32,000 nt of DNA from Methanothermobacter sp. K4 (GCF_022014235.1 NZ_JAKLTD010000002.1:172284-204283); one strand, 5' to 3'; counted from the first letter of the stretch, positions 6,362 to 27,578 are shown. Made by a program: numbers and translations. The notes: generated from the letters alone by a model not told the origin.

Positions 6362-6400
6362 TTTAATTCATTTAAATAAACATGTGCCCCTTAAGATGAT

Positions 6401-7003
6401 TTAAAGCACTGCAAGTTCACCTGCAGAGGTTATCTCAAGTTTTTCACGGTCTATGAACCCCATGTCACGGAGTTCCCTTATGTGGTTGTAGGTCATTCCC
6501 CTGCTTATACCTATCTTGATTGCAAGGTTCTTAACCGAAGTTTCACCTGCTTTGAGTTCCTCAAGGACCTGTTTCTTGGTCTTGGAGATCCCGAAGCTCA
6601 GTATGGGGAGGTCTATGAGTTCACTGTCCTCCTCGGTCACATACACTATGCGCTGGACATCATGGTTCCTGGCATAGCAGCCGAAGAGTGCACCGAGTGC
6701 CTGGGTCTTCCTGCCCCCGCTTATATTAACCACAACACGCCTTCCATTGGCCCTTTCCTCATCTATGATCTCAACCATGTCCTTTGCAATGGTGACAACA
6801 TCATAAAGACTTGTCTCGAAGGTCGTTATCTCAACGAAGTTACCCAGGGTGTCTCTGAGGACCTGTTCTACCTGTTCCTTCTCCCTTGGCGCCTTATCCT
6901 CCTTGAGCAGTACGACCTTCTTTGGTGAGAACTGTGTTATGCAGAACATCACCGGCTCAATGGAGTATATTGTGGATATCAGCGTTGTATCCATTATTAT
7001 CAC
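6401..7003 (-). CDS. CARF-domain plus winged-helix regulator (Csa3-like, 'CRISPR locus-related DNA-binding protein' type), with no cas genes or array nearby
   Basis: The N-terminal Rossmann-like domain has 'KKVVLLKED' and '[22 protein letters not shown]'. The C-terminal wHTH is '[30 protein letters not shown]'. Start is GTG 7003 or ATG 6994. Confidence 0.7.
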
Positions 7004-8279: not shown

Positions 8280-8594
8280 ATGAGTGATGCTGTAGAAACA
8301 TCAAGGACACTTGAACTTGTGCTTGGAATAATCGGGGCGATCTTCGGTTTGCTGGGAGGCCTTTTTGCCATTGTACTTTCGGTTTTTGGTTCCGAGCTAC
8401 TCTATCTGGGTATCAGTGCGATACTGGCCTCAATTGTGGGGATCATAGGATCAGTATATGTAAGGAACAACCCCAGAAGGGGTGGTGTGATCCTCATAGT
8501 CAGTGCCCTCTGGCTTCTCATAAGCATATCTGCCTATGCAATCCCCGGAACAGTTTTCCTTGGTATTGCAGGTATTCTCGGGCTAATAAGATAG
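8280..8594 (+). CDS. Small polytopic membrane protein (DUF4064-like)
   Basis: RBS GGAGG at 8266..8270. The 104-aa product has three Gly/Ile-rich hydrophobic helices (LVLGIIGAIFGLLGGLFAIVLSVFG..). Confidence 0.6.
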   Translation: MSDAVETSRTLELVLGIIGAIFGLLGGLFAIVLSVFGSELLYLGISAILASIVGIIGSVYVRNNPRRGGVILIVSALWLLISISAYAIPGTVFLGIAGILGLIR

Positions 8595-8614
8595 TCCCCA
8601 TTTTATTTTTTTAA
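8595..8614 (+). terminator. C-run plus oligo-T element (tccccattttatttttttaa) inside the operon; possible attenuating terminator
   Basis: It starts 1 nt after the TAG stop (8592..8594) and shares the exact 18-mer CCCCATTTTATTTTTTTA with 5458..5475. The next gene's RBS (GGAGG 8616..8620) follows immediately. Confidence 0.35.
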
Positions 8615-8621
8615 TGGAGGT

Positions 8622-9323
8622 GTGCATTTGAAAAGGTGCTCAAACTGTGGATCAGAAAACAGGAGAGATGCAATCTTCTGTTCCAGCTGCGGGTTTGAAC
8701 TTAACTCTGGGGGGAGTAACAGCTGGTGGAAAAAGCAGAGCCAGACATCAAAGTTTCTAATAGCTACTGGACTCCCAATGATAATAATACTCTTCATTGC
8801 AGTTGCAGCCACGTTTTTTACCGACCATAGTACTGATTACAGCGATGATTACAGTTATGATACTTTGGATGCTACTGGTGGGTCAGCGTTAACAGAATCA
8901 TACATCAATAAATTCGAGGGCAATGGAATCTCATTCAGTTACCCCGAGACATGGAATATCTACACACCGGAAAATAGAAGCTCAGATACCGTAGTTGATC
9001 TCAAATCTTACGATATGGGTATAAACTCAATCATGACCGTCTATAAAAAACCCTACACCCTTAGTGCTGAAACCCTGAAGGAAATCTGGCTTGAAGTATG
9101 CTATGAAAAAGGGGATAGCGTTGAATACGTGAAGGAAATCGAGGTTGATGGTAACCGGGCATATGCCATCAAATCATCGTATTATTCAGATGGATGCGGA
9201 GACCATGAGTACATTGTATTCACCGATGGCAAATATGAATACTCCCTGCTTTTCACATCTGATGACATCTCACTTATACAGGATGATATAAACACAATTA
9301 TAAGGAGTTTCAGGGTTGAGTGA
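8622..9323 (+). CDS. Zinc-ribbon / TM / PsbP-DUF1795-like extracytoplasmic domain protein
   Basis: N-terminal zinc ribbon CSNCGSEN..CSSCG, one TM (LIATGLPMIIILFIAVAATFF), then 'ISFSYPETWNIY..'. GGAGG-N7 spacing favours TTG 8628 over the tracked GTG 8622. Confidence 0.7.
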   Translation: MHLKRCSNCGSENRRDAIFCSSCGFELNSGGSNSWWKKQSQTSKFLIATGLPMIIILFIAVAATFFTDHSTDYSDDYSYDTLDATGGSALTESYINKFEGNGISFSYPETWNIYTPENRSSDTVVDLKSYDMGINSIMTVYKKPYTLSAETLKEIWLEVCYEKGDSVEYVKEIEVDGNRAYAIKSSYYSDGCGDHEYIVFTDGKYEYSLLFTSDDISLIQDDINTIIRSFRVE

Positions 9324-9879
9324 TATGGATTCCGATAGAATGATTCCGGTTATTGCAGCGGTTATGCTGGCTCTTCTGTTCACAGCCGGTGCACTGCAGC
9401 TACTCAAGGGCGGCAGTGTCCAGGAAGATAAAGTTGAAACGGCAACGGTTGAAAAAACCTCAGATGGATACCGGCTGAACCTTCAGGCTGTCCTTGAACT
9501 TGCAGAGATGGACTCAGGTAACGGGACCGTGAAGTACAGGGGATTCAACTTCACAGGCCCCCAGTTACTCTACATCTTTGCAAGGGGGGTTGTGATGCTG
9601 GAACTCAATGAGACAGGAAAGATCCATGTGGGTGAATACGGTGGCCCTGAGGACCCCTATGGATTCATGGATACCGTTACCCTTACAAGGAGTGAATACA
9701 CCGATATGGCGGAGCGCACATACAACTGGATGGACGCCAATGGCAGAAGCCCCAACCACGTGGGTATCTATGTTGAGGGATCCCCCGATATAACCCCATC
9801 CCTTGCAAGGAAGATCTTCAGACAGGTTCTGGTTGAATACAGGAGGACAGGGACTCTACCAGAAGTGGTGAGTGCCTGA
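9316..9879 (+). CDS. Membrane-anchored pseudomurein-binding-repeat (PMBR) protein
   Basis: N-terminal TM (IPVIAAVMLALLFTAGAL). The segments 'GPQLLYIFARGVVML' and 'LTRSEYTDMAERTYNWMDANGRSPNHVGI..ITPSLARKIFRQVLVEYRRTGTLPEVV' match my recollection of the PMBR pattern (..rlPnyV..). It overlaps the upstream gene by 8 nt. Confidence 0.65.
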   Translation: MSDMDSDRMIPVIAAVMLALLFTAGALQLLKGGSVQEDKVETATVEKTSDGYRLNLQAVLELAEMDSGNGTVKYRGFNFTGPQLLYIFARGVVMLELNETGKIHVGEYGGPEDPYGFMDTVTLTRSEYTDMAERTYNWMDANGRSPNHVGIYVEGSPDITPSLARKIFRQVLVEYRRTGTLPEVVSA

Positions 9880-9990
9880 ATACCTTTTTTCTTTTTATAG
9901 AAATCTAACTTAACTATTAAATTGTTGAATGAGCAAACCTTTATCCTCAAACTATCAAATGGGAAAATAGTGTACTGATGGAAGTTCAGT

Positions 9991-10677
9991 ATGCAGAGAA
10001 AACTGATCATATCACTCATAATCACCGGGGCTTTAATCACGGTTTACCTGCTGAACCCCTCCCTCCACAGCACAGATAACAGGAAGGAAGCTGTGGTTCT
10101 GGGCTCAGATAAGATGGGCACAGTTGAGAAACTTGGACCCTACGGGAACAGAAACTCAGAGGTGAAAATAGCCTACATAACAGGGGTCCACCCCCTTGAG
10201 GGGAACTCCCACAGGGCAGTAATGCAGGCCCTTGAGGAGAACCAGGACAAACTGAGGTACATGTACTTCGTATACCGGGTCAACGTCACATTTAACCCGG
10301 AGGACTACGAAAAGGGGAGAATGGCAGGGCAGCTCCTTGCACGAAGATACGTGGTCTCCGATGTATCCCGGGGTAACTACAGCCTCGCAGTTGATGTGCA
10401 CTCCAACAGGGGCAACTATGGTATGAGGAGGTTCGTTTTCACCCCACTTCCTGATGATAGGAGCAGGTTGATAGCCCTGAAACTTGCATCCAGGATCAGC
10501 TGGCTATCCTACTACCTCCCTGAGTCACAGACAAGCCCCGCCTATGTAACAGAACCCATAATTCAGGGGGGAACACCCGCCATACTCTATGAGAACTACA
10601 TGTACCAGGACTACTCACAAACCCTGCAACATGCCAGGGAGTTCATAATAACCCTGGACTCCACTGACATCCCATAA
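9991..10677 (+). CDS. Secreted or membrane-anchored putative zinc hydrolase with an M14/AstE-like HxxE...H signature
   Basis: N-terminal TM/signal (LIISLIITGALITVYLL). Motifs are 'ITGVHPLEGNSH' (HxxE), 'AVDVHSNRG' (second His) and 'AILYENY' (candidate catalytic Glu). At 228 aa it is shorter than classical M14 enzymes. Confidence 0.5.
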   Translation: MQRKLIISLIITGALITVYLLNPSLHSTDNRKEAVVLGSDKMGTVEKLGPYGNRNSEVKIAYITGVHPLEGNSHRAVMQALEENQDKLRYMYFVYRVNVTFNPEDYEKGRMAGQLLARRYVVSDVSRGNYSLAVDVHSNRGNYGMRRFVFTPLPDDRSRLIALKLASRISWLSYYLPESQTSPAYVTEPIIQGGTPAILYENYMYQDYSQTLQHAREFIITLDSTDIP

Positions 10678-10756
10678 AAACTTAAGAGAGACCCGCCACA
10701 ACCAGCTGCAGCAACCTGGAAAAGCAGTGAAAACCTGAAACAGAACCACCGAAACC

Positions 10757-10875
10757 GAGAAATTAATATACTCTTTTTCACATATATTACAGTGTGGTCC
10801 CGATGATACACTGCAGAGAAATTAATATACTCTTTTTTACATAATATTAAGGTGTGGTTCTGATGATACACTACA
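10757..10875. repeat. Tandem 59/60-bp duplication covering the promoter-like AT box, RBS and first codons of the small zinc-ribbon gene
   Basis: Copy 1 (10757..10815): gagaaattaatatactctttttcacatatattacagtgtggtcccgatgatacactgca. Copy 2 (10816..10875): gagaaattaatatactcttttttacataatattaaggtgtggttctgatgatacactaca. Identity is about 85%. Confidence 0.85.
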
Positions 10876-11045
10876 GAATGGATCAGCCAGAGAGGGTGAG
10901 GTGCAGTGTCTGCGGTGGAGTTGCAGATGAGGTGGAGGAGACATACCCTGAATCAGGGAACTTCATCCTGGTGATCTACAGATGCCGCGACTGTGGCCAT
11001 CTCGAGAAACGACAGTACGGTAAACCCGTGAAGATTATAGATTGA
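10854..11045 (+). CDS. Small zinc-ribbon protein
   Basis: CSVCGG...CRDCGH forms two CxxC pairs. AAGGTG at 10849..10854 with 8-nt spacing favours ATG 10863 (MIHYRMDQPERV..). Confidence 0.6.
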   Translation: MVLMIHYRMDQPERVRCSVCGGVADEVEETYPESGNFILVIYRCRDCGHLEKRQYGKPVKIID

Positions 11046-11054
11046 GGTGATCTT

Positions 11055-11744
11055 GTGGTTGATGTATGCGCTGCGAATGGATATGATGTGATATCAGGAA
11101 AACTGAAGGACCTCCTTGGACTTGAAAAGTCCCCGGTGGCGATAAAACTCGTTCTAAGGGAGGATGACCTTCCTGAGGGCGTTGAAAAAATAGAGAAGCC
11201 TGCAAGGCACTGTGAAATGGTCCAGATGGCCGCTGCAGGGAAATCATTCTATGCGACGGCTGAGGCCCAGGCATGCAAGGGTGGTGCAGATGCCCTTGGA
11301 ATAGATGAGGCACCAGAGAAGGTCAAAACAGGGGAGTTCTACTACAACCTTGGCCGCTTCGCAAGCTTTGCATCAGCCAAGAGAACCTTTGATGAGATAC
11401 CATCCGTTGACCTCAGGTTTTACGCTGCAGTATACGCGCCCCTTGAGGATGCAACCTTTGACCCTGACGTCATAGTGATCATCTGCAACCCTGCCCAGGC
11501 AATGAAGATCTCACAGGCCCTCGTCTACACGCTGGGTGGCCGCGTTGAGGCAGACTTCTCAGGTATACAGTCACTCTGTGCAGACGCAGTTGCAGGTCCC
11601 TACATGAGGAAGAGGGCAAACATAACCATGGGGTGCAGTGGTTCAAGGCAGTACGCCGGTGTGAGGGATGATGAACTCATAGTGGGCCTCAACGGCGAGA
11701 ACATAGGGTGTGTTGTCAACGCCCTTGAGGCCATAAGCCAGTAG
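11055..11744 (+). CDS. DUF169-family protein
   Basis: 229 aa. 'SPVAIKLV', 'ARHCEMVQMAAAGKSFYATAEAQACKGGADALGI' and 'CSGSRQYAG' fit the DUF169 (COG2043) pattern. RBS is GAGGTGA at 11044..11050. Confidence 0.7.
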   Translation: MVDVCAANGYDVISGKLKDLLGLEKSPVAIKLVLREDDLPEGVEKIEKPARHCEMVQMAAAGKSFYATAEAQACKGGADALGIDEAPEKVKTGEFYYNLGRFASFASAKRTFDEIPSVDLRFYAAVYAPLEDATFDPDVIVIICNPAQAMKISQALVYTLGGRVEADFSGIQSLCADAVAGPYMRKRANITMGCSGSRQYAGVRDDELIVGLNGENIGCVVNALEAISQ

Positions 11745-11765
11745 GCTCACCTGATAAAACGTGGG

Positions 11766-11984
11766 GTGATGGTTGTGGTTGAGACAAAGACCTTCAGGAT
11801 CCTTGAGGATGTTGCTGACCTCGAGGAAAAGATAAGGAAATATGAGGGTGAGGCAGACCAGGAGCTTGTTATAAACTGGATCTATGATACCCTTGAGATC
11901 CTCAGGAGTGTGGGTAAGCTCCTTGAGGAGATTGAGGATAGACTGGATCTTCTTGAAGAGGAGACCGAGGAAAAGGAATTCTAG
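11766..11984 (+). CDS. Small acidic coiled-coil protein, hypothetical
   Basis: 72-aa ORF directly after the DUF169 gene. It is Glu/Leu-rich and helical (..LLEEIEDRLDLLEEETEEKEF) and is followed by a T-rich tract. I recognise no family. Confidence 0.45.
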   Translation: MMVVVETKTFRILEDVADLEEKIRKYEGEADQELVINWIYDTLEILRSVGKLLEEIEDRLDLLEEETEEKEF

Positions 11985-12053
11985 ATTGGGGTCTCCACCT
12001 CTTTTCTTTTAGTTGCTGACTCCGGTCTCCAGCTATTCCCCTTGACTCCAAAT

Positions 12054-12137
12054 ATTCCCTTATTCTAATGTAATCACTGCAGTGGTTCAATATCTACCAA
12101 AAAATTCCCTTATTCTAATGTAATCACTGTAGTGGTT
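12054..12137. repeat. 34-bp direct repeat, 50-bp period, duplicating the 3' coding end of the nucleotidyltransferase gene
   Basis: attcccttattctaatgtaatcactgcagtggtt (12054..12087) versus attcccttattctaatgtaatcactgtagtggtt (12104..12137), 33/34 identical. Copy B encodes NHYSDYIRIRE. Copy A lies just past the stop codon. Confidence 0.9.
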
Positions 12138-12737
12138 TACATTCACCAGTTCAATGGGATCCGATGCCTCAACACCGTACAGCCTGATGCCATCATCCAC
12201 CATCAGATGGAGCAGAGGATTTATGTTTCCATCACCCCGGGGGAGGTATCTTTTAAGGAGATCTGAGCTAGCTGCAAGGGGCATGCCTAGGCCCTCAGCG
12301 CTCTCAAGCCATCCGCTCCTCCCCCTTGCAAGTACCGAAACCGTCTCAGGGTCAGCTTGTTCAGTGATCCTCCCCATGGTCTCAGGGGATACCGCCGGCT
12401 GGTCCCCGGCAACGCAGAGTATGACTTCACCTGAAGCAGAAAGAACACCATTGAGGAGTGATGCCGAGAGTGGAACATCAGGTGGATCGTTCCTCACAAT
12501 CTCCACATCCAGACCTGATATCGCCTCCTCAACCTCCCCTGCATGGTGGCCTGTTACGACGATGCACTCATCCACACCCGCCCTGAGGACTGAATCCACT
12601 GTTTTCTCTATTACAGTAACTGAGTTGAGGGGGAGGAGGAGTTTATGGACAGGCTCAAGGCCGAGTTTCAGCATGTCCCTACACATTCGGCTGCCACGCC
12701 CTGCCGCTGTAATAACCGCTGAGATCAACTCCACCAC
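12087..12737 (-). CDS. MobA-like (NTP_transf_3) nucleotidyltransferase, probably a separate gene starting at GTG 12737/12734
   Basis: 'ISAVITAAGRGSRM' is the GxGxR nucleotide-binding N-terminus that normally sits about 5 aa from the start. 'ECIVVTGHHAGEVEEAI' and 'LCVAGDQPAVS' fit the family. The ORF track merges it into a 613-aa ORF (12087..13928). Confidence 0.75.
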   Translation of the reverse strand: MVELISAVITAAGRGSRMCRDMLKLGLEPVHKLLLPLNSVTVIEKTVDSVLRAGVDECIVVTGHHAGEVEEAISGLDVEIVRNDPPDVPLSASLLNGVLSASGEVILCVAGDQPAVSPETMGRITEQADPETVSVLARGRSGWLESAEGLGMPLAASSDLLKRYLPRGDGNINPLLHLMVDDGIRLYGVEASDPIELVNVNHYSDYIRIREFFGRY

Positions 12738-12738
12738 C

Positions 12739-13907
12739 CTATGCCGGTTCAAGCCTGTAGATCCTGGCGTATATTGTTGTACCCGCACCTGACCCTGTCG
12801 TCCACATCTCAATGAGTACCGGTACCTCCCTGTGTTCCTGACCTTTATTCCGGTTGCCGGGTTGAAGCCGAACAGGACCGCACGGAACTCCCAGGTCATG
12901 CCCCTGGGGAGTGGCATCCCTGCATCAGTGACAACGGCCCTGAGGGCCCTTGCAGGTGGGCATGAGCCGTGGGACGCGTATCCGCCGGGGGCCTCCGGGT
13001 CCCTTGATGCCGTGAACCTGACTGTCTCCTTACCTGAACCCTCACTTCCCGGTGGAATCACTGTGCCATTCCATGCCGCGGCGAATGCCCTCGCATTGAA
13101 GGCCCTCTTGTTATCATCGTACTGGGGGTATGAGCCCAGGTAGCTCACTGCAGTTGATACCAGAACCCTCCTGTAGCCTCCAGTGTACACCATGACAGGC
13201 GCCCCTGAGGGGTAGTTCTCCATGTACTCAATAACCTCCCCCCCAAAGAGCTCCTCTATCCTGCCGGGTGGAACAGGGAGTCTGCCGTCGCTGAAGTTGG
13301 ATAGCTGGTAGTCCAGGACTATCTCGTCGCCATCATCGGCCCTTCTGAACCACCTTTTTATCCTGTTAACGGATTTGTACCTGTGGGGGACTGTGCTGTT
13401 ACTTATACTATCTGCAGGGACGAATCTGACCTTCCTCCCGTTCTCAATGATATCTATACCCTTCTCTCTCTTGACACCATAGGTGTAGGGTGTCTTGTAG
13501 GCCCAGAGGAAGACCGGTGGCTCCTGGACCACCAGTTTATCCCCTGAAATCCTCAGTACTCCAGGACCATCGACAGTGGATCTTCCTGATGGGTCTATCC
13601 CTGAGGTCATCCTGGATATCGGGACGTGCACTGCCCCTGTGAGGAGCGCCTGGAGGAGGTTCCCGGGGTCCATGTAGTTGAATTCATCAAGGATGTAGTC
13701 TGGGTGCAGTATCAGGGGGACGCTCCTCACCCGGGACTCATCGATGACATCCTGACCCTTCAGTACCGTGCTTCCAGGCTCAAGGGCGGCTATCTCGCCA
13801 GGGTGCTGGGGTTCAGCACTTCCCTCGATGTATGCGTCTGATGCTGTTATGATGGCTGCAACAATAAGCAGTGCAATGATGTGCTTACCTGATATGATCC
13901 TCTGCAT
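12739..13907 (-). pseudogene. Exported VanW-like protein, apparently interrupted by a 1-nt frameshift at the G-run 12828..12830 (or a sequencing error, or recoding)
   Basis: Signal anchor MQRIISGKHIIALLIVAAIITASDA. 'HGSCPPARALRAVVTDAGMPL' and 'GIKVRNTG' weakly resemble the VanW core (GGGvCQvSsTLYnAal.AGL.., DlkFkNdtg). The -1 frame continues with 'EVPVLIEMWTTGSGAGTTIYARIYRLEPA*', which is VanW-C-terminus-like, and ends at TAG 12739..12741. Confidence 0.5.
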
Positions 13908-16881
13908 ATCTGAATCCCCCCTCACCAATTATGAGTATGGTGTCATATGGTTCTGCAATTTCAAGGGCCCTGCTGACAGCCTCCTCAACCTGCTCGCGGC
14001 TCGCCCCAAGGGTCCCTGCCCCTGCCCTGGTCCTGCTGGATTCTGTATGGACCACCCTCTTACCCAGGATACCTGAGGCTCTCCTTGCAGCATAGGATGC
14101 CGGTATAACGGTGTCGGCGTCCCTCAGGAGCGATGCGATTTCCAGATCACCATCCATTCCACTCTCAGAGGCCACGGTATTTACGACTATAAGCCTTCCA
14201 TCGGTCCCCTTAAGTTCCTGCATCACAGCCCTCACACCGGCCGGGTTGTGGGCGTAGTCAAGTATAACCCGTGGTGAGTCCAACAGTTTCTGGAACCTTC
14301 CCCTCACACCACTGAATGACTCAATACCCTTCACTATATTATCAATATCCACGCCAAGGGACCATGCAGCGGCAGCTGCTGCCAGTGCATTGTAAACATT
14401 GAAGATCCCTGGGGCCTTAAGTTTAACATCCCTCATCTCGGGGCCTATTACCAGTTTGAAGCCAGTGCCTGATGCCTCCAGTGCCATAACCTCTGGCTGG
14501 GGTCTCCGGTAGCCACAGACACACTGGTAGTCCCCCAGGTGCCCCATGGTTCTGCGTGTATATTTGAGGGTGCTGCCACATTTGGGGCATTCCCTGCCCT
14601 CAGGCATGACCGGCGCCGACTCTATACCCTGGATACCATAGAGAACCACTCTCTCCTCCCTCAGTTCCTCTGCGAATGATGCTACGATGGGGTCATCGGC
14701 GTTCAGTACCATGACCTCAGCTGTATCAATGATCTCCCTCTTGCATTCAATGTAATCAGAGAACCGCCTGCCACCTGATAGGTGGTCCCTTGATATGTTG
14801 GTTATGACACCCACTGAGACCCCTGAGAGGAGGGCTGATTGCCTTATCTCACCCCTCCTCCCGAATGTCCCTATCTCAACAACCGCCACGTCCCCCGGGA
14901 GTCTTGCCTGGAGGGCCGGTACCAGTTCCGTGTTGCCCTGTATGCTGAGGTGGTGCTCTGGCACAGTCTTTCCGGCAGCCCTCATTATGGATTTGAGGAT
15001 ACCTGTGGTTGTGGTCTTTCCATTGGTCCCTGTAACCCCCACCACAGGTTTTTCAACAGGGCACATGTTCAGGACGTCCTCAACGCCTATCACATCAGCG
15101 TCAAGTTCCCTGATCAGATCAAGAACCTTCCTGTTATTTTCGAGGGCTGGTGTGATGGCTATGGTGCCTGCGCGCTTGAGGAACTCCATGCTGTGACCCC
15201 CAAGGTCAAGTTCTATTCCCTCCTCCCTGAAGACATCCTCAAGGGGTGTACTCTCCTTCAGATCCGAGACGATCACCCGGTAACCCCTTGCCCGGAGGTT
15301 CCTTGCCATGAGGCTTCCCACATTCCCGCAGCCTCCAAGGACAACTGTGAAGTCCCTCATTGACTCTATGGCCCTCTCAATATCATTCCTCACGTTATCA
15401 TATGCGTTGACAACCCCCGGGCCCAGGTGGAGTACCGTGTCCCCCTTTTCTGCGATTTCAAGGGCCCTCCTTATGCTATCATATACGCTCCCGGTCTTTA
15501 TGGTTTTATCCCTGCCGGCACCCCCTTCAACCTCAGAGGCTGCTTCCATGTCAATCTTACCTGTTGTCTCATTCTTGGCGCTTACAATCAATATATCGGC
15601 TTTCTCACCAAGTATCTGACCTATCCTGTACTTGTCCCTCACTGTGAGGGTGTCGGGGTTGTCAAGGCTTATTATCAGCCTCCCCTTAAATTCAATGCCC
15701 TCAAAGAGTTTCTCCATACTCTCAGGGTTGTGGGCTGCGTCCATGTAAACCGGGACACCATCAACCTCATCTATGAACTCAAATCTACCCTTTATACCCC
15801 TGAATTCCTCTATTGCATTTTTGATATCCTTAATGTCAAATCCAAGTACCAGTGCAACGGTTATGGCTGCAAGGGCGTTCTCCACGTTGAAGAGGCCCGG
15901 TACCCTGAGTTTTATCCTCTCGGTGAGGGGCCCGGCATGGACCAGCCCTTCATGTTCCTCACAGTTTAAAGATCCGCAGGTGCTGCAGAGGGCCGTTGGT
16001 ATCTCTGAGACCTTCAGGGTGAACTCTGATCCCTCAAGGCCCATGAGGTCTATATCTGATGCGCTGACCTGGGGTTCAGCTGAGCCGGTGAAGGTTCTAT
16101 CCATGAACTCAACTTTCCTTTCGTTCCCCAGACCATACACTACACTTTTAACCTCAAGGTCATCCAGGAGCCCCGCGATAACAGGGTCGTCTCCACAGAG
16201 TACCAGAACACCTCCCGGGGCTATGAGGTTCTTTATTGAGAAGTTCCTCTCAATGTATTCGTCGTAGTCCCTGAACTCATCCATGTGGTCGGGTGTGAGG
16301 TTTGTCACGACACCAGCCACTATTTCAAGGCCGTCGGCCATCCTTATGGTCCCGTGTGGGAGTTCAAACACGGCAATGTCCCTGTTTTTCACATCACCGT
16401 TCACCACAAGTTCTACCAGACCCTCAATGACCAGTGAGTCCTGGATTGATGAGAATGACACTGTCCTGTGGCTTGAGGAAAGTATGTGGTCTATCATGTT
16501 GGTGGTTGTTGTCTTCCCGTCTGTACCTGCAACTCCAACCATGGGGATGCCTATGAGCTGGTTGAGGATCCTCCCTATGTCTGAGGTTGTTATGTGGACC
16601 AGATCCTTCTCCACCCTCCCCAGCATCTCACGTACAGGTGCATCGTGGGGGATGTTGGGTGATACGAAGACGGCGTCGGCCCAGAGCATGTCCTCAATCC
16701 TGTGACCCCCAAACCTGAATCTCACACCCTCCTTTTTCATCTCAGCTATTCTCCTCCTGGCCTTGGGGGGCAGTTCATCCAGTTCCCTGAGGTCATTTAC
16801 AAGCACACTGTTTCCAAGGTGTCTCAGCAATCTTGCGGCGGGTCTGCCAGCGTTTCCATCTCCAAGCACAAGCACGTTCAT
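13885..16881 (-). CDS. Tandem double Mur-ligase-family protein (two complete ATP-dependent amide ligase modules; pseudomurein peptide ligase candidates)
   Basis: Module 1 (about 15361..16881): MNVLVLGDGNAG.., P-loop GVAGTDGKTTTT, DAAHNPES. Module 2 (13885..15360): MRDFTVVLGGCGNVG.., P-loop GVTGTNGKTTTT, C4 zinc ribbon CPKCG..CVCG, DYAHNPAG. There is no in-frame stop at the junction ..AIES|MRDF... The tracked GTG 16902 is probably upstream of the real ATG 16881. Confidence 0.9.
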   Translation of the reverse strand: MNVLVLGDGNAGRPAARLLRHLGNSVLVNDLRELDELPPKARRRIAEMKKEGVRFRFGGHRIEDMLWADAVFVSPNIPHDAPVREMLGRVEKDLVHITTSDIGRILNQLIGIPMVGVAGTDGKTTTTNMIDHILSSSHRTVSFSSIQDSLVIEGLVELVVNGDVKNRDIAVFELPHGTIRMADGLEIVAGVVTNLTPDHMDEFRDYDEYIERNFSIKNLIAPGGVLVLCGDDPVIAGLLDDLEVKSVVYGLGNERKVEFMDRTFTGSAEPQVSASDIDLMGLEGSEFTLKVSEIPTALCSTCGSLNCEEHEGLVHAGPLTERIKLRVPGLFNVENALAAITVALVLGFDIKDIKNAIEEFRGIKGRFEFIDEVDGVPVYMDAAHNPESMEKLFEGIEFKGRLIISLDNPDTLTVRDKYRIGQILGEKADILIVSAKNETTGKIDMEAASEVEGGAGRDKTIKTGSVYDSIRRALEIAEKGDTVLHLGPGVVNAYDNVRNDIERAIESMRDFTVVLGGCGNVGSLMARNLRARGYRVIVSDLKESTPLEDVFREEGIELDLGGHSMEFLKRAGTIAITPALENNRKVLDLIRELDADVIGVEDVLNMCPVEKPVVGVTGTNGKTTTTGILKSIMRAAGKTVPEHHLSIQGNTELVPALQARLPGDVAVVEIGTFGRRGEIRQSALLSGVSVGVITNISRDHLSGGRRFSDYIECKREIIDTAEVMVLNADDPIVASFAEELREERVVLYGIQGIESAPVMPEGRECPKCGSTLKYTRRTMGHLGDYQCVCGYRRPQPEVMALEASGTGFKLVIGPEMRDVKLKAPGIFNVYNALAAAAAAWSLGVDIDNIVKGIESFSGVRGRFQKLLDSPRVILDYAHNPAGVRAVMQELKGTDGRLIVVNTVASESGMDGDLEIASLLRDADTVIPASYAARRASGILGKRVVHTESSRTRAGAGTLGASREQVEEAVSRALEIAEPYDTILIIGEGGFRYAEDHIR

Positions 16882-16913
16882 GTTCCTGATCAATTTATGC
16901 ACCCGTAGATCTG

Positions 16914-16921
16914 TTTTATAA
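16914..16921 (-). promoter_or_regulatory. TATA-like box (TTATAAAA on the minus strand) upstream of the double-ligase gene
   Basis: Plus-strand ttttataa at 16914..16921, about 35 nt upstream of ATG 16881. It implies an internal promoter and a short leader. Confidence 0.35.
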
Positions 16922-17049
16922 GTGAAAGGTATGCATTGTCATAAGTAATAAGTTTATGATCAACCGGGAGTTCCCGGATGGTAAAGAAATATGCAGTCCA
17001 TTTATTATTATTGGTTATTCCTATATACCAGTTACGCAGGTGATGGGCT

Positions 17050-18261
17050 TCATTCACAGGAGGATAGTTTCTCGAGTTCTTCCTGGACCCTGATTATCTT
17101 ATCCTGGCCGTTTCCACCCACAAAGACTCTCCTGTATTTCCTGGAAAACTCAAGGACCATGCGGGGGATTTCCTCAGTGTCATCAACTGTTATGACCTCT
17201 GAGTGGATTTCAAGGCCCTTAAGGTATTCCAGTACCATGTCAACCGTGTCCTCAAGGCCAGGGAATATCACAAGGACCCTGGGGGGTGACTCTGCAACCT
17301 CATCCAGGATATGGAGGCGCCACCTCTCTGACCTCCTGGGTGTCCCCATGAACATAACATCGAATTCTGATTCAGAGAGTACCGCCCTCATGGCATGGGG
17401 ATTGTCGGTTTTACCTGCAACGACAGATGCTCCGTTGATGATGAACGACCTTATACGGCCCTTTACAGGCTCAAAACTGGCAAGAGCCTCCTTTATGATA
17501 TCCTCCGGAACCCCAAGATACCTGAGGGCCTCTGATGCCGCCCCTGCGTTCAGTCTGTTGAATCCGCCCTCAACCCTCAGGGGCCCTGTGTACTCGCTGT
17601 AGGTCCTGAGAACCCGGGGGGCCTCCATGAGTTCCCCATCTGACTCGCTGGGGTCGATCACGGCGTTCCTCCCCTTAAGGAATTCTGCCACCGCCCTCCT
17701 GTAATTCTCAATGGATCCATGGAAGTCCATGTGGTCCTCTCCAAGGTTTGTGAGGACCACGAGGTCAATGTCGAAGCACTCTGATGCAAATTCCAGGGTC
17801 ATGTCGCAGACCTCCACCACAAGGTAATCGAATTCCTCCTCAGATGCCCTTAAAAAGAGTTCTGTGTAGCCCCCAAATCCCCCTCCAGCGTTTCCACCAA
17901 GAAGCACCCTTTCACCTGCACATTCAAGTACATGTGCTATCATTGTGGCGGTTGTGGTCTTTCCATTGGTCCCTGTGACCACGATGGTTGTGGGTTTTCT
18001 GTGGCCCTCAAGGACCCTGCAGAGGAGTTTATCCCTGAACCGCTCCATGAGTTCGGTTTTTATCATTGATGGGCTGATTACAACTGCATCTGCAGCCTCT
18101 ATCTTCCCTGTATCATAAAAGCCCAGGTCAAGGTCAACCCCCTCAGGCTTTGAAGGAATTTCACGTCTTATGTCACTTGCATATACACTGTGACCCCTTC
18201 TCTTTAGTGACTCAACTGCCCTTAAACCCTCAGCTCCAAGTCCCAGCACCGCAACCCTCAT
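17050..18261 (-). CDS. Mur-ligase-family protein (MurD-like architecture; pseudomurein peptide ligase candidate)
   Basis: Rossmann-like N-terminus MRVAVLGLGAEGLRAV, P-loop VVTGTNGKTTTA, 'VVLTNLGEDHMDFHGS' and 'GKTDNPHAMRAV'. RBS is GGTGA upstream of ATG 18261. Confidence 0.9.
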   Translation of the reverse strand: MRVAVLGLGAEGLRAVESLKRRGHSVYASDIRREIPSKPEGVDLDLGFYDTGKIEAADAVVISPSMIKTELMERFRDKLLCRVLEGHRKPTTIVVTGTNGKTTTATMIAHVLECAGERVLLGGNAGGGFGGYTELFLRASEEEFDYLVVEVCDMTLEFASECFDIDLVVLTNLGEDHMDFHGSIENYRRAVAEFLKGRNAVIDPSESDGELMEAPRVLRTYSEYTGPLRVEGGFNRLNAGAASEALRYLGVPEDIIKEALASFEPVKGRIRSFIINGASVVAGKTDNPHAMRAVLSESEFDVMFMGTPRRSERWRLHILDEVAESPPRVLVIFPGLEDTVDMVLEYLKGLEIHSEVITVDDTEEIPRMVLEFSRKYRRVFVGGNGQDKIIRVQEELEKLSSCE

Positions 18262-18279
18262 TGGTTCACCGATTAACTG

Positions 18280-18525
18280 TTAATCTTCTCCTGAATCATC
18301 ATCAGAAACCCCATATTCCTCCTTGAGCTGGGCTATTATATCCTCGTTCTTTGACACCTCGGGTCTGAGAGGTTTTTCCTCCTCCTCCCTTGACCTTTTG
18401 CGTTTACCGATGAATACGATCAGCAGGATGACCCCTGCAACTGCAAGGGTCACGGCAACCGCAGTTAATATAACCTCCATGCTCACAGGTGGAGTTTCAG
18501 TAGCTGCCCCGGGTCCCATTGCCAC
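18280..18525 (-). CDS. Small single-pass membrane protein with an acidic C-terminal tail; first gene of the ligase operon
   Basis: TM is VILTAVAVTLAVAGVILLIVFI, followed by KRKRSREEEE and ..DDDSGED. GAGGT is at 18527..18531. ATG 18519 is an alternative to the tracked GTG 18525. Confidence 0.55.
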   Translation of the reverse strand: MAMGPGAATETPPVSMEVILTAVAVTLAVAGVILLIVFIGKRKRSREEEEKPLRPEVSKNEDIIAQLKEEYGVSDDDSGED

Positions 18526-18533
18526 ACCTCAGT

Positions 18534-18543
18534 TTTATATAAA
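18534..18543. promoter_or_regulatory. Palindromic TATA element (TTTATATAAA) in a 41-bp divergent intergenic region
   Basis: It reads TTTATATA on both strands. It lies 24-33 nt from ATG 18567, which suggests a leaderless or short-leader mRNA. A second atatatat block is at 18556..18563. Confidence 0.45.
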
Positions 18544-18566
18544 TAATCATACAATATATATCTTAC

Positions 18567-19130
18567 ATGATAATGAAGGATCCAGGTGGACAGGGGGGTG
18601 CAGAGTACATACTTCTTTTTGCAGCCATCATAATAATCGCAGTTGCAGCCCTCTACATATACAGCTCCTACTTTAAGGTCTCAGGTAATGAGACAGTTGA
18701 CGTGAAGCTCACAATAACCAATATCGGTCCATCAAAGAGTGTCTTCATCTATGAGGCCAATAACACCACCGGTGGCGGCAGCCGGCACATCGTATCAGGG
18801 GACCCTGGAAACTACTTCTTCCTCCTCCAGCCAGGGTCAAGCAGGACCTTCAACCTTGGCCGGATGAGTGCCGGCACCAGCTTCACGGTTGAGGGTGGTG
18901 TTGGTGACCCCCGGAGAGGTGCGGATGACCTCAAGGGTATCGGGCAGCGGGGAAGGTGGACACTGAACATAGGAAACCAGACCTACTCCTGGACCATCAG
19001 CGGCCCCTTTGATTACACCAGAAACCCCACTGGAAGTGTCCTCATGTCATTCTCCATAGCTGGAGGTGGCGGCTCCCCCTTCAGGTTCACCGCAGACCAG
19101 GCCCGGGTGCGGGGTAACGTATCAGGGTAG
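18567..19130 (+). CDS. Class III (type IV pilin-like) signal peptide protein
   Basis: The N-terminus '[32 protein letters not shown]' fits the archaeal prepilin pattern (charged, G/Q, then E, then a long hydrophobic helix). The C-terminal domain is beta-rich. Confidence 0.65.
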
Positions 19131-19139
19131 GTGAGATTT

Positions 19140-19631
19140 ATGGGAAGATATGAGAAGGCAACCTTTGGTGCCGGATGCTTCTGGGGAGTTGAGGATGCAT
19201 TCAGGAGAGTCAGGGGTGTCGTATCCACCCGTGTGGGTTACATGGGTGGCCACGTGGAGAACCCCACCTATGAGGATGTCTGCACCGGTCTTACAGGGCA
19301 CGCTGAGGTTGTTGAGGTCACCTTTGACCCTGCCCTTGTGAGCTACAGGGAACTCCTTGATGTCTTCTGGAGCATCCATGACCCCACAAGCCTCAACAGG
19401 CAGGGGCCGGATGTGGGTGAGCAGTACCGTTCAGTGATATTCTACCATGACGATGGGCAGAGGAGGCTGGCGCTGGAGTCAAGGAGGAAGCTTGAGGAGT
19501 CTGGAAGGTTCAGTGGGAGGATCGTTACAGCCATTGAACCTGCAGGTACCTTCTATGAGGCCGAGGAGTACCACCAGCAGTACCTTGAGAAGAACCGCGA
19601 GGGGAGATGCTACCTCAGGAGACTCCTCTGA
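19140..19631 (+). CDS. msrA: Peptide-methionine (S)-S-oxide reductase
   Basis: '[12 protein letters not shown]', '[29 protein letters not shown]' and '[11 protein letters not shown]' are canonical MsrA motifs. AGGTGA precedes ATG 19140. The tracked GTG 19131 abuts the upstream stop. Confidence 0.95.
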
Positions 19632-19680
19632 GGGTGCCGCCCTGAAGGAGAAGGTGAAAATAGAAAATGGGGTGATGTTC

Positions 19681-21354
19681 ATGAAGGAGGTCATGGATGA
19701 TGTTGCACTGGTCCTCTGCGGTGAGGCAGGGCAGGGGATACAGACAGTTGAGGCACTCCTTATAAGGGCCTTCAGGGCCACCGGCTACCATATATTCTCC
19801 TCCAAGGAGTACATGTCCCGTGTGCGTGGTGGTGAAAATTCGACGCTGATAAGGGTTTCATCAGCGCCTGTGAGGGCCTTTGTGGACCGTATCGATGTCC
19901 TCTTTGCCCTGAGCCCGGGGGCGGTGGACCACCTGAGGGAGAGAATCAACGGGACACTGATTATTGCAGATGAGAGCTTCGGTGAGGATGATGCCGTGGG
20001 CCTGCCCATACTTGAGGAGGCTGAGAAGCTGGGGGGACGTATATTCGCCAATGTTGTGGCTGCAGGTGCCGCAGCCCGTCTCTTCAGGGTCGGAGAGGAT
20101 GTCTTCGATAATGCCGTGAGGTCACTCTTTGAGCGCAAGGGACCTGAGATCCTCAATTCAGACCTCAGGGCTGGTAGGAAGGGTTATGAACTGGGCGAAA
20201 AACTCAGGGAACATCTGAGGGTCTCTGTTGAGCCTGACCCATCTGTCAGGGGTCATGTAATCCTTAACGGCACTGAGGCCGTGGGTTTAGGGTGCATAGC
20301 AGGGGGTTGCAGGTTCATGTCATCCTACCCCATGACCCCCTCAAGTCCCCTCCAGATATTCATTGCAGAGAATGCCGATGAATTTGACATGGTATTCGAG
20401 CAGGCCGAGGATGAGATTGCAGCCATAAACATGTGCCTTGGAGCATCATATGCAGGTGCCCGGTCACTTGTTGCAACCTCGGGGAGTGGTTTTGCCCTTA
20501 TGGAGGAGGCCGTTGGCCTTGCAGGGATGATAGAGACGCCTGTTGTGATATACATTGGTCAAAGGCCGGGGCCTGCGGTTGGGCTTCCCACGAGAACTGC
20601 CCAGGAGGACCTGAACCTGGCCCTCTACTCGGGACCAGGGGAGTTTGCAAGGGCCATATTCGCCCCGGGAAAGCTGGAGGATGCTCCTGAGATAACGGCA
20701 CATGCATTCAACCTTGCAGACAGGTACCAGGTACCCGTCTTCATACTATCAGACCAGTACCTGGCGGACCTCTACTACAACCTCCCTGAACCTGAAATCG
20801 GTGTGGAGGAGGAGTATCATATTAGCGGGACTGATGCCGGGTACAGGAGGTTCAGGTTCACAGAGGATGGTATCTCACCCCGCGGGGTTCCGGGTTACGG
20901 TGAGGGACTTGTGCGTGTTGATTCAGATGAACATGACGAGGACGGCTTCATAACAGAGGACCTCAATATAAGAAGCAGGATGGTTGAGAAGCGGAACCTG
21001 CGCCTTGAAATGCTCAGGGATGATGCACTGGCACCTGAGGTGTGGGGCGACGACTCCAGTGCAGTGATATGCTGGGGTTCCACCTACTGGCCTGTGAGGG
21101 AGGCCATCGGGTCATCTGATGCCGAGGTCACCATGGTGCACTTCAGTCAGGTCTATCCCCTGGCACCTGATACCCGTGAGCTTCTGGAGTCATTTGAGGT
21201 GACAGCCACCATTGAGAACAACTACAGGGGACAGTTCGCTGATCTGCTTAAACTTGAGGCCGGCTTTGAGGTTGACCATCGACTCAACAAGTACAATGGT
21301 ATGCCCTTCAGTGTTGAGGAGATAAGGAAATTCATAGGGGAGGTTTTTGCATGA
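19681..21354 (+). CDS. 2-oxoacid:ferredoxin oxidoreductase, fused gamma/alpha subunit
   Basis: Gamma domain '[13 protein letters not shown]'. Alpha domain '[28 protein letters not shown]' and '[25 protein letters not shown]'. The start is set at M79 of the tracked ORF (GGGGTGA RBS, 5-nt spacing). The tracked 19447 start overlaps msrA in another frame. Confidence 0.9.
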
Positions 21355-23725: not shown

Positions 23726-26239
23726 TTAGCCGGCCCTCTGGATGATGGATACTCCATCGGACTTTTCAACCCTGTATATGTGGTCTGCAAGGTTTTCAAG
23801 TTCCTCCTCATGGGATACCAGGATTATCTGTCTGGCCTCAAGTTCATCGAAGATGTCCCTGAGCTTGTAGAGCTGCTCCTTGCTGAACCCATCGGTTGGC
23901 TCATCCAGTATGAGTATATCTGACCTCACATCTGTGAGGTTCTGGACCACCATGTTGAGGGCGAGTCGGTATGCGAGTGCTATGCTGGTCCTCTCACCAC
24001 CACTGAGGTACTCAAGGTTCTGTTCGTAGCCGTCCTGCTCCACGATGGGTGTGAAGTCCTCGTCAATCCGCACCGATTTATCCGGGTCATCCACCAGGAC
24101 CCTGAACCATTTCTGGAACCTCTCATTGAACTCATGGTTTATCTGTGCCATCACATGGGTCTCAATGTCAGCGAGTGCAGGGATGAAGTATGATTCAAGC
24201 CAGGTCACATGGTCCTTGAGTTCACCTGCACGTTTTCTGAGTTTCTTCTTTTCATCAATTTCAGCCTCAAGGTTCCTGATCTGTTTCTCCTTTTCCTCGA
24301 TTTTCCCCCCAACTGATCCCAACCTCTGTTTTTTCTCATCCCTGAAGGTTTCAAGTTCACGGAGTTTTTCACCGATACCCTGTATACTGGCCTCCACCTT
24401 CTCCCTGTTTCTGAGTGCCTCCTCATTTTTCTTTATCTCCGCTTCCTTTTCTTTGATGGTTTCATCGTTTTCATTAATCCTCTGGAGGTTCTCCATGTAT
24501 TCAGTGCTGGTCTCAGGGTTGAGTTCAGGGATTCTTTCCTCAAGGCCCTCTATTTTTGAATTTACCCTTGAGAGCCTATCAGAGCATTTCCTCTCCCTTT
24601 CACGAAGGTCTCTGAGATCACCATCAATTTTTCTGAAACTGGATTCCACACCCTTCAGATCACTGATTACCATTTCATTTTCTTTTATATCCGATTCAAT
24701 GTCTCTGATTCTCTTCCCATTATCCCCAAGGTTCTTCTGCTTTTCCCCATATTCAGCCATCTTACTCTTAAGGTTCTCCCTAAGTTTGCTGAGTTCCTCC
24801 CGGGACCTCCTGTATTCCCTTATACGTTCAAAGAGTTTATTTTTATTTCCTATCTCAGCGTTAAGCTCCTTTATTCTGGATTCAACTGACCTTTTCCTCT
24901 CAAGGCCATCGCTGAGTTTATCGTTTATGTAGTCAGGGTCAACCTCCTGGTCACATGTCGGGCAGACACTCCTCTCTCTGATGGACCTGTAGTCATCTAT
25001 CTTCCCGGAGATGGCACCCAGCTCCTGCTGGAGCTTCGATACCTCACCCTCAAGTTTTTTTATCTCAGATTTCACTTCATCCTCGCTGTAACCTGGATCC
25101 TGGAGGGACTCCAGCTCCCCTATCTCTGATTTGAGGCTGTCAATCTCGACACGCAGCGCATCAATTTCACGTTCCATACTACCTCTGATATTTGAAAGGG
25201 TCTCAAGTTGATTCCTGAGACCTTCAAGTTTGGTGGAAGCATCTCTGAACCTTTCATAGTCCTCTCTGAGGGATTCTCTTTCATTATCCATCTCCTCAAT
25301 ATCCTTTCTGAGTGAATCGAATTCCTCCTGAAGTTCATCCCTCATCTTCCGGCACTTCTGAAGTTCATCCAGGGATTTCTGATAATCCATCTCTATATCC
25401 CTGTTTCTCCTCCTGAGCCTCTCTGAGGATAAACTTAAAGTTTCGATTTCATTCTGAAGAGATCCTATCTTCTCCTCGGCAGCTTTGATCCTGTTTTCCT
25501 CCTTTTTGAGTTCCTCAAGTTCCAGTCTGAGTTTGCTGATCTCCGACTCGATTACTTTGAGTTCAGCATCAAGCTCCTTCCTTGTGGATTCCAGTTCCCC
25601 CTTTTCACTGATAAGATTCCCCAGTTCCATTTTTTTATCCTCAAGGTCGTAGGATCTATCCTCGAGGCTCTGTGCGGATCTTCTGATTTTTTTTGAGAGT
25701 AGCTTTGCATTATCCGCTGCTCTGCTGTACTTTTCAAGGTCAAAGGCCTTCCTGAGCCTTTCAAGCCGGTCGCTGCTCCGGGTCTCTATTATGCTCTTCA
25801 TCTGCTCCTGTGGGGTGAATACCGCGTAACGGTATATCCTGCTCCTGGCCCTTGGATTCAGGGGTTCCCTGTAACCCAGGATGCTGAGTACCTCGGCCTT
25901 CAGTTCCTTTGCAGAGAGTTTCCTTCTCCCTGTGGGTGTTCTGATGTAGAGTTCCCCCTGCTGCACCCCTGAGGCGGCCCTTTTAAGTTCCCGGTAGATG
26001 GTGTACTCTGCACCGTCAACAGTGAAGGTGAGTTTGACTGAACCCGAATTTGCTGTGGCCCTCAGAAGGCTGTCACCCCTCTGGTCACCCAGCCCGAAGA
26101 GCGCGAATTCTATTGCAAGTAGAAGTGTCGTCTTACCTGAACCTATATCACCCTCAAAGAGGGTCACCCCATCATCAAACTCGACAGTTCCTGATTCATA
26201 GCTCCTTATGTTCCTGATTTCAAGTGAATTGATAATCAA
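23726..26239 (-). CDS. rad50: DNA double-strand break repair ATPase Rad50
   Basis: Walker [12 protein letters not shown], long coiled coils, central zinc hook CPTCDQ, signature [17 protein letters not shown], Walker [13 protein letters not shown]-loop VSHEEE. TTG start at 26239, 6 nt after GGTGA. Confidence 0.95.
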
Positions 26240-26311
26240 AGAGCATCACCACAAGCATATCAGTTATCTGGATTCACCCGGAGCAGGTCAACACCATCAT
26301 CTCTCCTGAGG

Positions 26312-27568: not shown

Positions 27569-27578
27569 CAGGTTCACC

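Follow-up and report, generated by a model that had tools for sequence, protein, structure and literature searches.

The gene string that occupies positions 12087-18525 on the minus strand of a 32,000-nt stretch of DNA from Methanothermobacter sp. K4 (the window, with positions counted from its first letter) is an already known system, namely the pseudomurein 'Gene Cluster 1' of Subedi et al. (2021), which is also the 'cluster B' of Lupo et al. (2025). The explanation that we consider best for the locus as a whole, at a probability of roughly three in four, is that this is the known cluster for the peptide stem of pseudomurein, that its nucleotidyltransferase, PmurB, provides the glutamate starter activated with uridine diphosphate (UDP), and that the apparent fusion of PmurB to the adjacent PmurA is a lesion or an error. 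The string is real and far beyond what chance would produce, and dozens of Methanobacteriales genomes have the genes in the same order; this study observes directly which genes are present, in what order they stand, how they are conserved and that they are confined to pseudomurein archaea. The role given to PmurB has been in print as a proposal since 2021, the protein is curated in NCBIfam and has an orthologue in the PDB, and it was assayed indirectly in 2026. The only results reported here that go beyond the literature are a relationship between PmurA and the VanW domain and a pair of frameshifts.

The gene cluster and its nucleotidyltransferase

In the scheme of Subedi et al., Gene Cluster 1 comprises a C/D-type ligase and two invariably present open reading frames (ORFs), exemplified by Mfer335 and Mfer334. 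Mfer334 is a GlmU/MobA-like nucleotidyl transferase, proposed by these authors for the second step in the formation of the UDP-N-alpha-glutamyl starter. Lupo et al. arrived independently at the same three-gene core, found it to be specific to pseudomurein archaea, and noted the Mur-alpha/Mur-beta fusion proteins of Methanothermobacter and Methanobrevibacter; the names PmurA-E were given to the genes by Cha et al. (2026). The cluster in the window follows the type 1A arrangement of M. thermautotrophicus and M. marburgensis, in which pMurD2 and a fused pMurD1::pMurC are followed by a member of the Mfer335 family (PmurA) and then by a member of the Mfer334 family (PmurB), and its taxonomic restriction is identical to that of the published cluster. 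It differs from the published cluster in the merging of PmurA and PmurB by two 1-nt indels, in a 50-nt tandem duplication at the PmurB stop codon, and in an extra small membrane-protein gene upstream, which it has in common only with its closest relative.

As read, the string holds four ORFs of 81, 403, 1005 and 613 aa (Table 1). A sequence-only reading of the same DNA had described five separate products with tight or overlapping junctions. The first three are indeed minus-strand ORFs, the 81-aa one with a single hydrophobic helix and the 1005-aa one with two complete Mur-ligase modules by Pfam, but what had been taken for the fourth and fifth products is one continuous ORF of 613 aa (13928..12087). 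Two of the junctions, a gap of 18 nt at 18279-18262 and an overlap of 23 nt at 13907-13885, are as described, whereas pMurD2 is followed by a spacer of 147-168 nt, and the stop and start said to lie 1 nt apart (TAG at 12741-12739, g, GTG at 12737) exist only in the canonical PmurA frame, from which the frame of the first 362 codons has departed.

Conservation was assessed with one genome per species; 138 relatives of PmurB were returned, and 83 loci were fetched. The best 80 of the 138 are all from Methanobacteriales-type genomes or metagenome-assembled genomes (MAGs), and every homologue of PmurA or PmurB that bears an organism name comes from a Methanobacteriales-type genome. PmurA lies directly 5′ of PmurB in 81 of the 83 fetched loci, with a gap of 0-309 nt between them. 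The genes occur either as pMurD2, pMurD1::pMurC, PmurA and PmurB, which is the layout of the window, or as pMurD2, PmurA and PmurB with the other ligases elsewhere, and in nearly all loci pMurD2 stands upstream of PmurA or of pMurD1::pMurC. The linkage between transferase and ligase genes on which the sequence-only reading had leaned is therefore conserved, the named matches all being pseudomurein-type methanogens. One locus (L028, JBNGDB010000006.1) belongs to a MAG labelled 'Methanomicrobiales archaeon' and has the full pMurD2-PmurA-PmurB cluster; the label is probably a taxonomic mislabel rather than a sign of pseudomurein genes beyond the Methanobacteriales.

The MobA-like domain recognized in the raw sequence by its AAGRGSRM motif, with a start near 12737, is confirmed by Pfam (NTP_transf_3, E 5e-23, residues 404-559 of the 613-aa ORF). 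The segment 12728..12087 matches the NCBIfam model 'pseudomurein biosynthesis protein PmurB' (NF053639) from end to end (positions 1-209 of 209) with 266.8 bits against a cut-off of 260, and within the 613-aa ORF the same model scores 262.8 bits over residues 403-603. A crystal structure of a Methanothermobacter-type PmurB, PDB 6PLJ, is matched at E 6.5e-104 with about 74% identity over 213 residues by our own count. Every residue that is invariant in the family (21 sequences including that of the window) has been kept, among them A11, A12, G13, R17 and M18 as well as D112, Q113 and P114. In keeping the GxGxR and (A/G)DQP motifs and in passing the equivalog cut-off the protein resembles the other PmurB/Mfer334 proteins; unlike them, it has C-terminal residues altered by the duplication, and no upstream stop separates the gene as read. 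Its native start is likely to be TTG at 12728 or GTG at 12737/12734, behind the Shine-Dalgarno-like run GGTGGTGGAG. The duplication consists of two 38-nt copies, 95% identical, with a period of 50 nt and spanning the PmurB stop; the last few residues of the protein (…REFFGRY*) are replaced by it, and downstream the C-terminal coding sequence is present a second time without being translated. Compared with the related loci L001 and L004 there are about 40-50 extra bases at this place, the relatives being without the duplication.

The Pfam family to which this domain belongs is called 'MobA-like NTP transferase', and many of the homologues have been annotated as molybdenum cofactor cytidylyltransferase by the Joint Genome Institute, so one might suppose that PmurB is an ordinary MocA/MobA cytidylyl- or guanylyltransferase of the molybdenum cofactor that merely sits beside ligase genes. 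The sequence-only reading had itself named such an activity as fatal to its proposal. We regard this as highly improbable. The protein scores 64.5 bits against a curated cut-off of 186.45 for MocA (TIGR03310) and 20.5 against 151.85 for MobA (TIGR02665), while it passes the equivalog model of its own family, and the named matches are confined to pseudomurein methanogens, in which the gene is invariably linked to PmurA. Scores below the MocA/MobA cut-offs together with so restricted a linkage favour a role specific to pseudomurein.

PmurB most likely makes the UDP-activated starter, as judged from its fold, its gene context and the published indirect assays. It would join uridine monophosphate (UMP) from uridine triphosphate (UTP) to N-alpha-phospho-L-glutamate, the phosphate of the latter attacking the alpha-phosphate of UTP, and would release N-alpha-UDP-Glu and pyrophosphate by the chemistry of the sugar-1-phosphate uridylyltransferases. 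The N-terminal domain of GlmU, MurU (PDB 4Y7U) and MobA/MocA share with PmurB a Rossmann-like fold for nucleotide transfer and an N-terminal loop that binds the nucleoside triphosphate, and the attack of a phosphate oxygen on the alpha-phosphate is presumably common to all of them as well. Unlike these enzymes, with which its similarity amounts to only 20-64 bits, well under their cut-offs, PmurB is proposed to have an amino-acid phosphoramidate as its acceptor instead of a sugar phosphate or molybdopterin. We infer N-alpha-phospho-Glu as the acceptor by analogy with GlmU and MurU, from the published scheme and from the phospho-glutamate (P-Glu) sought by Cha et al. The sequence-only reading had suggested a reaction of UTP with free L-Glu; the product of that reaction would be UMP-Glu, which points to a phosphate-bearing acceptor for UDP-Glu.

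The available biochemistry concerns PMurB of M. ruminantium, which Cha et al. assayed indirectly, using a UMP-Glu analogue in the reverse direction with mass spectrometric detection of P-Glu. The closest characterized relatives of PmurB, which are of the GlmU, IspD and MobA/MocA types, act on sugar or alcohol phosphates. It could thus be argued that PmurB serves the glycan branch, activating a sugar-1-phosphate on the way to UDP-N-acetylgalactosamine or UDP-N-acetyltalosaminuronic acid, since pseudomurein also needs dedicated nucleotide sugars, and that another enzyme makes the glutamate starter. This is unlikely, given that PmurB always adjoins PmurA and the peptide ligases and not sugar-modifying genes, that the acceptor pocket of PMurB was found by Cha et al. 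to be smaller than that of MurU, with P-Glu seen by mass spectrometry, and that methanogens already encode GlmU-type enzymes.

The starter made by PmurB would then be extended in the cytoplasm by three ATP-dependent ligase modules with intact P-loops, pMurD2 and the two of the fused pMurD1::pMurC. We infer that these modules add amino acids to a uridine-linked peptide at the expense of ATP from the activity of orthologues, since Cha et al. reported that PMurC adds Ala or Thr, and PMurE Lys, to uridine-linked peptides. The 403-aa ORF matches NF053647 (pMurD2) over its full length with 553.4 bits against a cut-off of 550; it contains the Pfam domains MurD-like_N and Mur_ligase_M and an intact P-loop, GTNGKTTT. 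The fusion ligase is 1005 aa long when read from GTG at 16902, and a start at ATG 16881 (998 aa) is more likely. Pfam finds two full sets of Mur-ligase domains in it, which correspond to a pMurD1-like module at about 15358-16881 and a pMurC module at about 13885-15357 with a four-cysteine site (CPKC...CVC). The pMurC model (NF053645, cut-off 560) scores 651.9 bits on the whole fused ORF and 510.3 on the C-terminal half alone, and residues 519-1002 align with the pMurC structure PDB 6VR7 (E 1e-163); for the N-terminal half, pMurD1 scores highest among the models. About 50 full-length homologues of the fused protein, 983-1201 aa long, are found in Methanothermobacter, Methanobacterium and Methanobrevibacter.

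Some of what had been claimed for these genes is overtaken by the literature. The statement that no enzyme had been assigned to the UDP-Glu step was out of date, because Subedi et al. had assigned Mfer334 to it; in naming the MobA-like transferase as a candidate, the sequence-only reading came to the same view as the specialists, although that view had been proposed already in 2021. Nor is the activation module 'complete', as the published papers place pMurE, an MraY-like transferase and an ATP-grasp enzyme in a second cluster, and these families have no match among the large ORFs of the window that were scanned.

The merged PmurA-PmurB frame

The 613-aa ORF differs from the corresponding genes of the closest relatives (L001-L004, whose PmurA proteins are 93-94% identical and against which the indels were called) by two changes that lie 84 nt apart. 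One C is missing from a CCC run, so that TAC CCG GTA of the relatives appears as TAC CGG TA, and an extra G turns TAG GTG into TAG G GTG. In the relatives PmurA is 389 aa long and ends in TAG, with PmurB next in the same frame. Through the second indel the shifted PmurA frame comes into register with that of PmurB; the TAG is no longer read as a stop and a single ORF results, with 28 codons out of frame, the last 27 codons of PmurA among them.

The frame that has been abandoned still looks like a coding frame. Translated canonically, 12819..12739 is identical to the relatives, and the base differences are all synonymous third positions (6/6 against L001 and 5/5 against L004). The conserved PmurA ending, YP(V/I)xIxMWT...IY, is missing in-frame from the window and encoded only in the other frame; in the AlphaFold2 (AF2) model of PmurA, residues 364-388 form two well-packed terminal strands with a predicted local distance difference test (pLDDT) score of about 96-97. 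A PmurA-PmurB fusion was found in none of 45 PmurA homologues, 83 PmurB homologues and 81 loci; the 83 PmurB homologues are separate proteins of 206-228 aa. Both indels are changes in homopolymer length, and they are the only indels within the coding sequence of the cluster relative to L004. Programmed frameshifting was considered as the cause of the shifted frame and found no support, the pair of homopolymer-length changes being simpler.

Contigs in Logan for SRR17831477, 99.99-100% identical to the window, flank the 3′ part of PmurA and PmurB: L084 covers 12901-19954 and L085 covers 8516-12075. The end of L084 coincides exactly with a C/A site at which the window is unlike its relatives, and that of L085 lies inside the duplication. 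Contig breaks on either side, one of them at a variant site, suggest mixed haplotypes (strain heterogeneity) or an assembly problem. The fusion most likely arose either as a lesion of very recent date or through errors of sequencing or assembly in two homopolymer runs, and translation of PmurB would probably still begin at its own start codon behind the GGTGGTGGAG run.

The alternative is that the 613-aa ORF is real and that it encodes a functional bifunctional enzyme, in the manner of a Rosetta-stone protein, with PmurA and PmurB on the same side of the membrane and acting in consecutive steps. The ORF is uninterrupted in the window, where no other gene is frameshifted, the indels compensate each other exactly, and the published models do place PmurA and PmurB in consecutive steps. 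We consider this quite unlikely all the same. No fused homologue occurs among the matches or loci, the out-of-frame codons take the place of two conserved core strands, the abandoned frame shows synonymous changes only, and the contigs of the same strain are interrupted to either side of the region. The PmurA domain is also predicted to lie outside the cell, and the transferase needs cytoplasmic UTP, so, if that prediction is right, a fusion of PmurA to a UTP-dependent cytoplasmic enzyme would make little topological sense. The fusion is thus probably not a functional bifunctional protein.

Several points weigh against our explanation of the locus and have to be set beside it. With respect to the frameshift pair, two exactly compensating errors 84 nt apart would be unusual and long ORFs are intact elsewhere in the 32-kb window, so that the fusion may be real in this strain. 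No independent sequence across 12076-12900 was recovered: exact look-ups of the 606-aa fusion, of PmurB with three different starts and of the predicted partial product all came back empty, and a pattern scan of metagenomes for either allele found nothing. With respect to the pathway, Cha et al. assayed PMurB with an analogue and in reverse, and the account given of these assays is not consistent with itself. The pMurD1 module scores 365-479.5 bits against a curated cut-off of 610 for NF053646. PmurA, which is the published candidate for the enzyme that makes N-phospho-Glu, gave no P-Glu in vitro in the study of Cha et al., and in our analysis it looks extracytoplasmic.

PmurA and the VanW domain

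In the literature PmurA is treated as a cytoplasmic glutamate kinase. The protein in the window belongs to the family, scoring 483.8 bits with NF053640 as read (residues 20-374 of the 613-aa ORF) and 534.2 after restoration of the missing C, against a cut-off of 400, and all 45 homologues are unfused proteins of 339-430 aa. It has an N-terminal signal-anchor, a domain to which no fold could be assigned, and at the C-terminus a VanW-like domain in which the motif SHGxCPPAR is invariant; its AF2 model has a pLDDT of 91.5. The homologues have a basic N-terminus, then a strongly hydrophobic segment, then an acidic stretch, and since this anchor and charge pattern is conserved, the domain that follows is predicted to face outward. 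PmurA would thus be a membrane-anchored protein with its conserved domain probably outside the cell.

The label 'VanW-like' had been given to this protein in the sequence-only reading. By Pfam it does not reach the threshold, the best scores of PmurA with VanW (PF04294) being 12-16 bits against a cut-off of 27, but comparison of profiles lends some support to a remote relationship. Among families below the threshold, VanW ranks first for 15 of 37 PmurA homologues and for the consensus of the family (E 0.008). When the PmurA profile was aligned by hhalign to a profile built from 13 VanW proteins taken from plasmid records, the probability was 81-82% (E 1.1e-5) over 117 columns that span the whole VanW domain, and a larger PmurA alignment repeated the result. 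A reversed profile gave a probability of 0.5%, and the best of 80 column permutations scored 27.4 against 44.1 for the real comparison. In this alignment the invariant Cys316 of PmurA falls on the catalytic cysteine of VanW (SHGxCPP and GGGxCQ, respectively). The catalytic triad of VanW is not complete in PmurA, as the positions of the His and Asp align to Thr and Asn; an invariant histidine, His313, lies three residues before the cysteine. Taken together, the profile similarity makes it probable that the C-terminal domain of PmurA is a remote VanW homologue.

Other searches did not reach VanW. Against a single VanW-B sequence hhalign gave a weak result (probability 2%), and nothing similar to the N-terminal and middle domain of PmurA was seen in the N-terminal parts of long VanW proteins. 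When 1.84 billion representative proteins were searched with a HMMER profile, 70 matches were obtained, none of them VanW; apart from two false positives (an NHL-repeat and a laminin-G protein) these appear to be members or fragments of the PmurA family. Foldseek found no structural match in the PDB for the PmurA model. VanW domains are L,D-transpeptidases with a fold that has no PDB match, as described for Ldt4 and Ldt5 of C. difficile (Bollinger et al. 2024), and the null result with Foldseek agrees with this.

PmurA resembles the VanW L,D-transpeptidases in having an N-terminal anchor before domains that are predicted to be extracytoplasmic and in a collinear profile similarity with the cysteine aligned. 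Unlike them, it fails the Pfam threshold, lacks at the aligned positions both the His of RxxHS and the Asp of GxDAT, and has no detectable PG_binding_4 or G5 domain. Its predicted topology and domain relationship suggest a role in extracellular cross-linking or trimming, and not that of a cytoplasmic glutamate kinase. The full proposal, that PmurA is a divergent, outward-facing member of the VanW superfamily which uses a Cys (+His) site and is the enzyme that cross-links or trims the stems of pseudomurein, is put forward tentatively, and we hold it to have clearly less than an even chance. In the field the bacterial-type cross-linking enzymes are considered to be absent for pseudomurein and transglutaminases are favoured, and we found no link between pseudomurein and VanW in the literature searched. 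As far as the link between PmurA and VanW argues against a kinase, no enzyme is left for the first step of the pathway.

Neighbouring features and significance

The features of the cluster are collected in Table 1. The AT-rich spacer between the pMurD2 stop and the start of the fusion ligase contains a CCGGG/CCCGG hairpin and a TATA-like box, TTATAAAA. It is about 146 nt long in the Methanothermobacter relative L004, and in Methanobacterium loci the corresponding interval measures only about 9-13 nt; Rfam finds no RNA family in the spacer or anywhere else in the window. From its sequence the spacer may be an internal promoter, and with such a box in it a single operon is not assured. The 81-aa membrane protein at the upstream end has only sub-threshold matches in Pfam and NCBIfam, so that no family was assigned, and tblastn found it in L004 (88%) but in none of the 82 remaining loci. 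It probably does not belong to the conserved gene set. Immediately upstream of the cluster, at 18567-19130 on the plus strand, a divergent gene encodes a protein of 187 aa whose signal peptide is of class III (the archaeal pilin type).

Table 1. Coordinates of the cluster features in the 32,000-nt window
Feature	Position	Strand	Size and basis
Small single-pass membrane protein	18280..18525	minus	81-aa ORF (79 aa in Logan gene call)
pMurD2 (Mur-gamma) ligase	17050..18261	minus	403 aa; NCBIfam NF053647
AT-rich spacer	16903..17049	minus	147 nt; 168 nt if the next start is ATG 16881
pMurD1::pMurC fusion ligase (Mur-alpha/Mur-beta)	13885..16902	minus	NCBIfam pMurC, PDB 6VR7
PmurA (Mfer335 family)	12739..13907	minus	NCBIfam NF053640; frame broken after codon 362
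-1 indel site	12821..12823	minus	alignment to relatives
+1 indel site	12738..12739	minus	alignment to relatives
PmurB (Mfer334 family), MobA/GlmU-like nucleotidyltransferase	12087..12737	minus	NCBIfam NF053639, Pfam NTP_transf_3
Tandem duplication, 50-nt period	12050..12137	no strand	repeat search; across PmurB stop codon

Most of the flanking genes are not concerned with the wall; they code for a CobN-like chelatase, a STAND ATPase, a regulator with CARF and helix-turn-helix (HTH) domains, a DUF169 protein, MsrA, a 2-oxoacid:ferredoxin oxidoreductase and Rad50/Mre11/HerA/NurA, and only the PMBR protein (9316-9879) is related to the wall. The sequence-only reading had placed PMBR, HxxE-hydrolase and transglutaminase-like genes around the cluster and spoken of a pseudomurein island; the PMBR gene stands, but transglutaminase and HxxE-hydrolase families have no match to the flanking ORFs even at E values up to 5, and the support for an island comes down to that one gene. 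A 228-aa protein at 9991-10677 has an N-terminal hydrophobic segment and a GVHPLEGNSH motif, no match to a Pfam family, and a conserved place beside the PMBR gene in L001 and L002. It is presumably what had been called the HxxE hydrolase, a label that no hydrolase family supports. At 5486-7003 on the minus strand the STAND/AAA_16 ATPase gene adjoins the gene for the CARF-like (HFX_2341_N / Cas_APE2256) HTH regulator, and this pair has the appearance of a module for signalling or defence that has no relation to the wall cluster. The genes for a Rad50-like protein (837 aa), a Mre11-like protein, HerA and NurA form an archaeal DNA end-resection operon at 23726-30160 (minus).

With regard to the cluster itself, our main claim changes nothing, as the cluster, the fusion ligase and the role of the transferase are already present in the literature, in the NCBI models and in the PDB; it does indicate that the earlier reading from raw sequence was sound, though not new. 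The frameshift pair is a warning for annotators of this genome. The bacterial dcw cluster, together with MurE-MurF fusions, offers a comparison, since in both cases genes for Mur-type ligases, some of them fused, lie in a cluster together with that of an extracytoplasmic enzyme of the wall, which here would be PmurA. Unlike their dcw counterparts, the ligases of the window would use UDP-amino-acid and UDP-peptide substrates in place of UDP-N-acetylmuramic acid, and the pseudomurein cluster is without MurA, MurB and a penicillin-binding protein. The relationship of PmurA to VanW provides a concrete and testable candidate for the unassigned cross-linking step of pseudomurein. If it is true, the cluster would couple the synthesis of cytoplasmic precursors to an extracellular wall enzyme, as the dcw cluster does in bacteria, and a bacterial-type family of cross-linking enzymes would exist in archaea after all.

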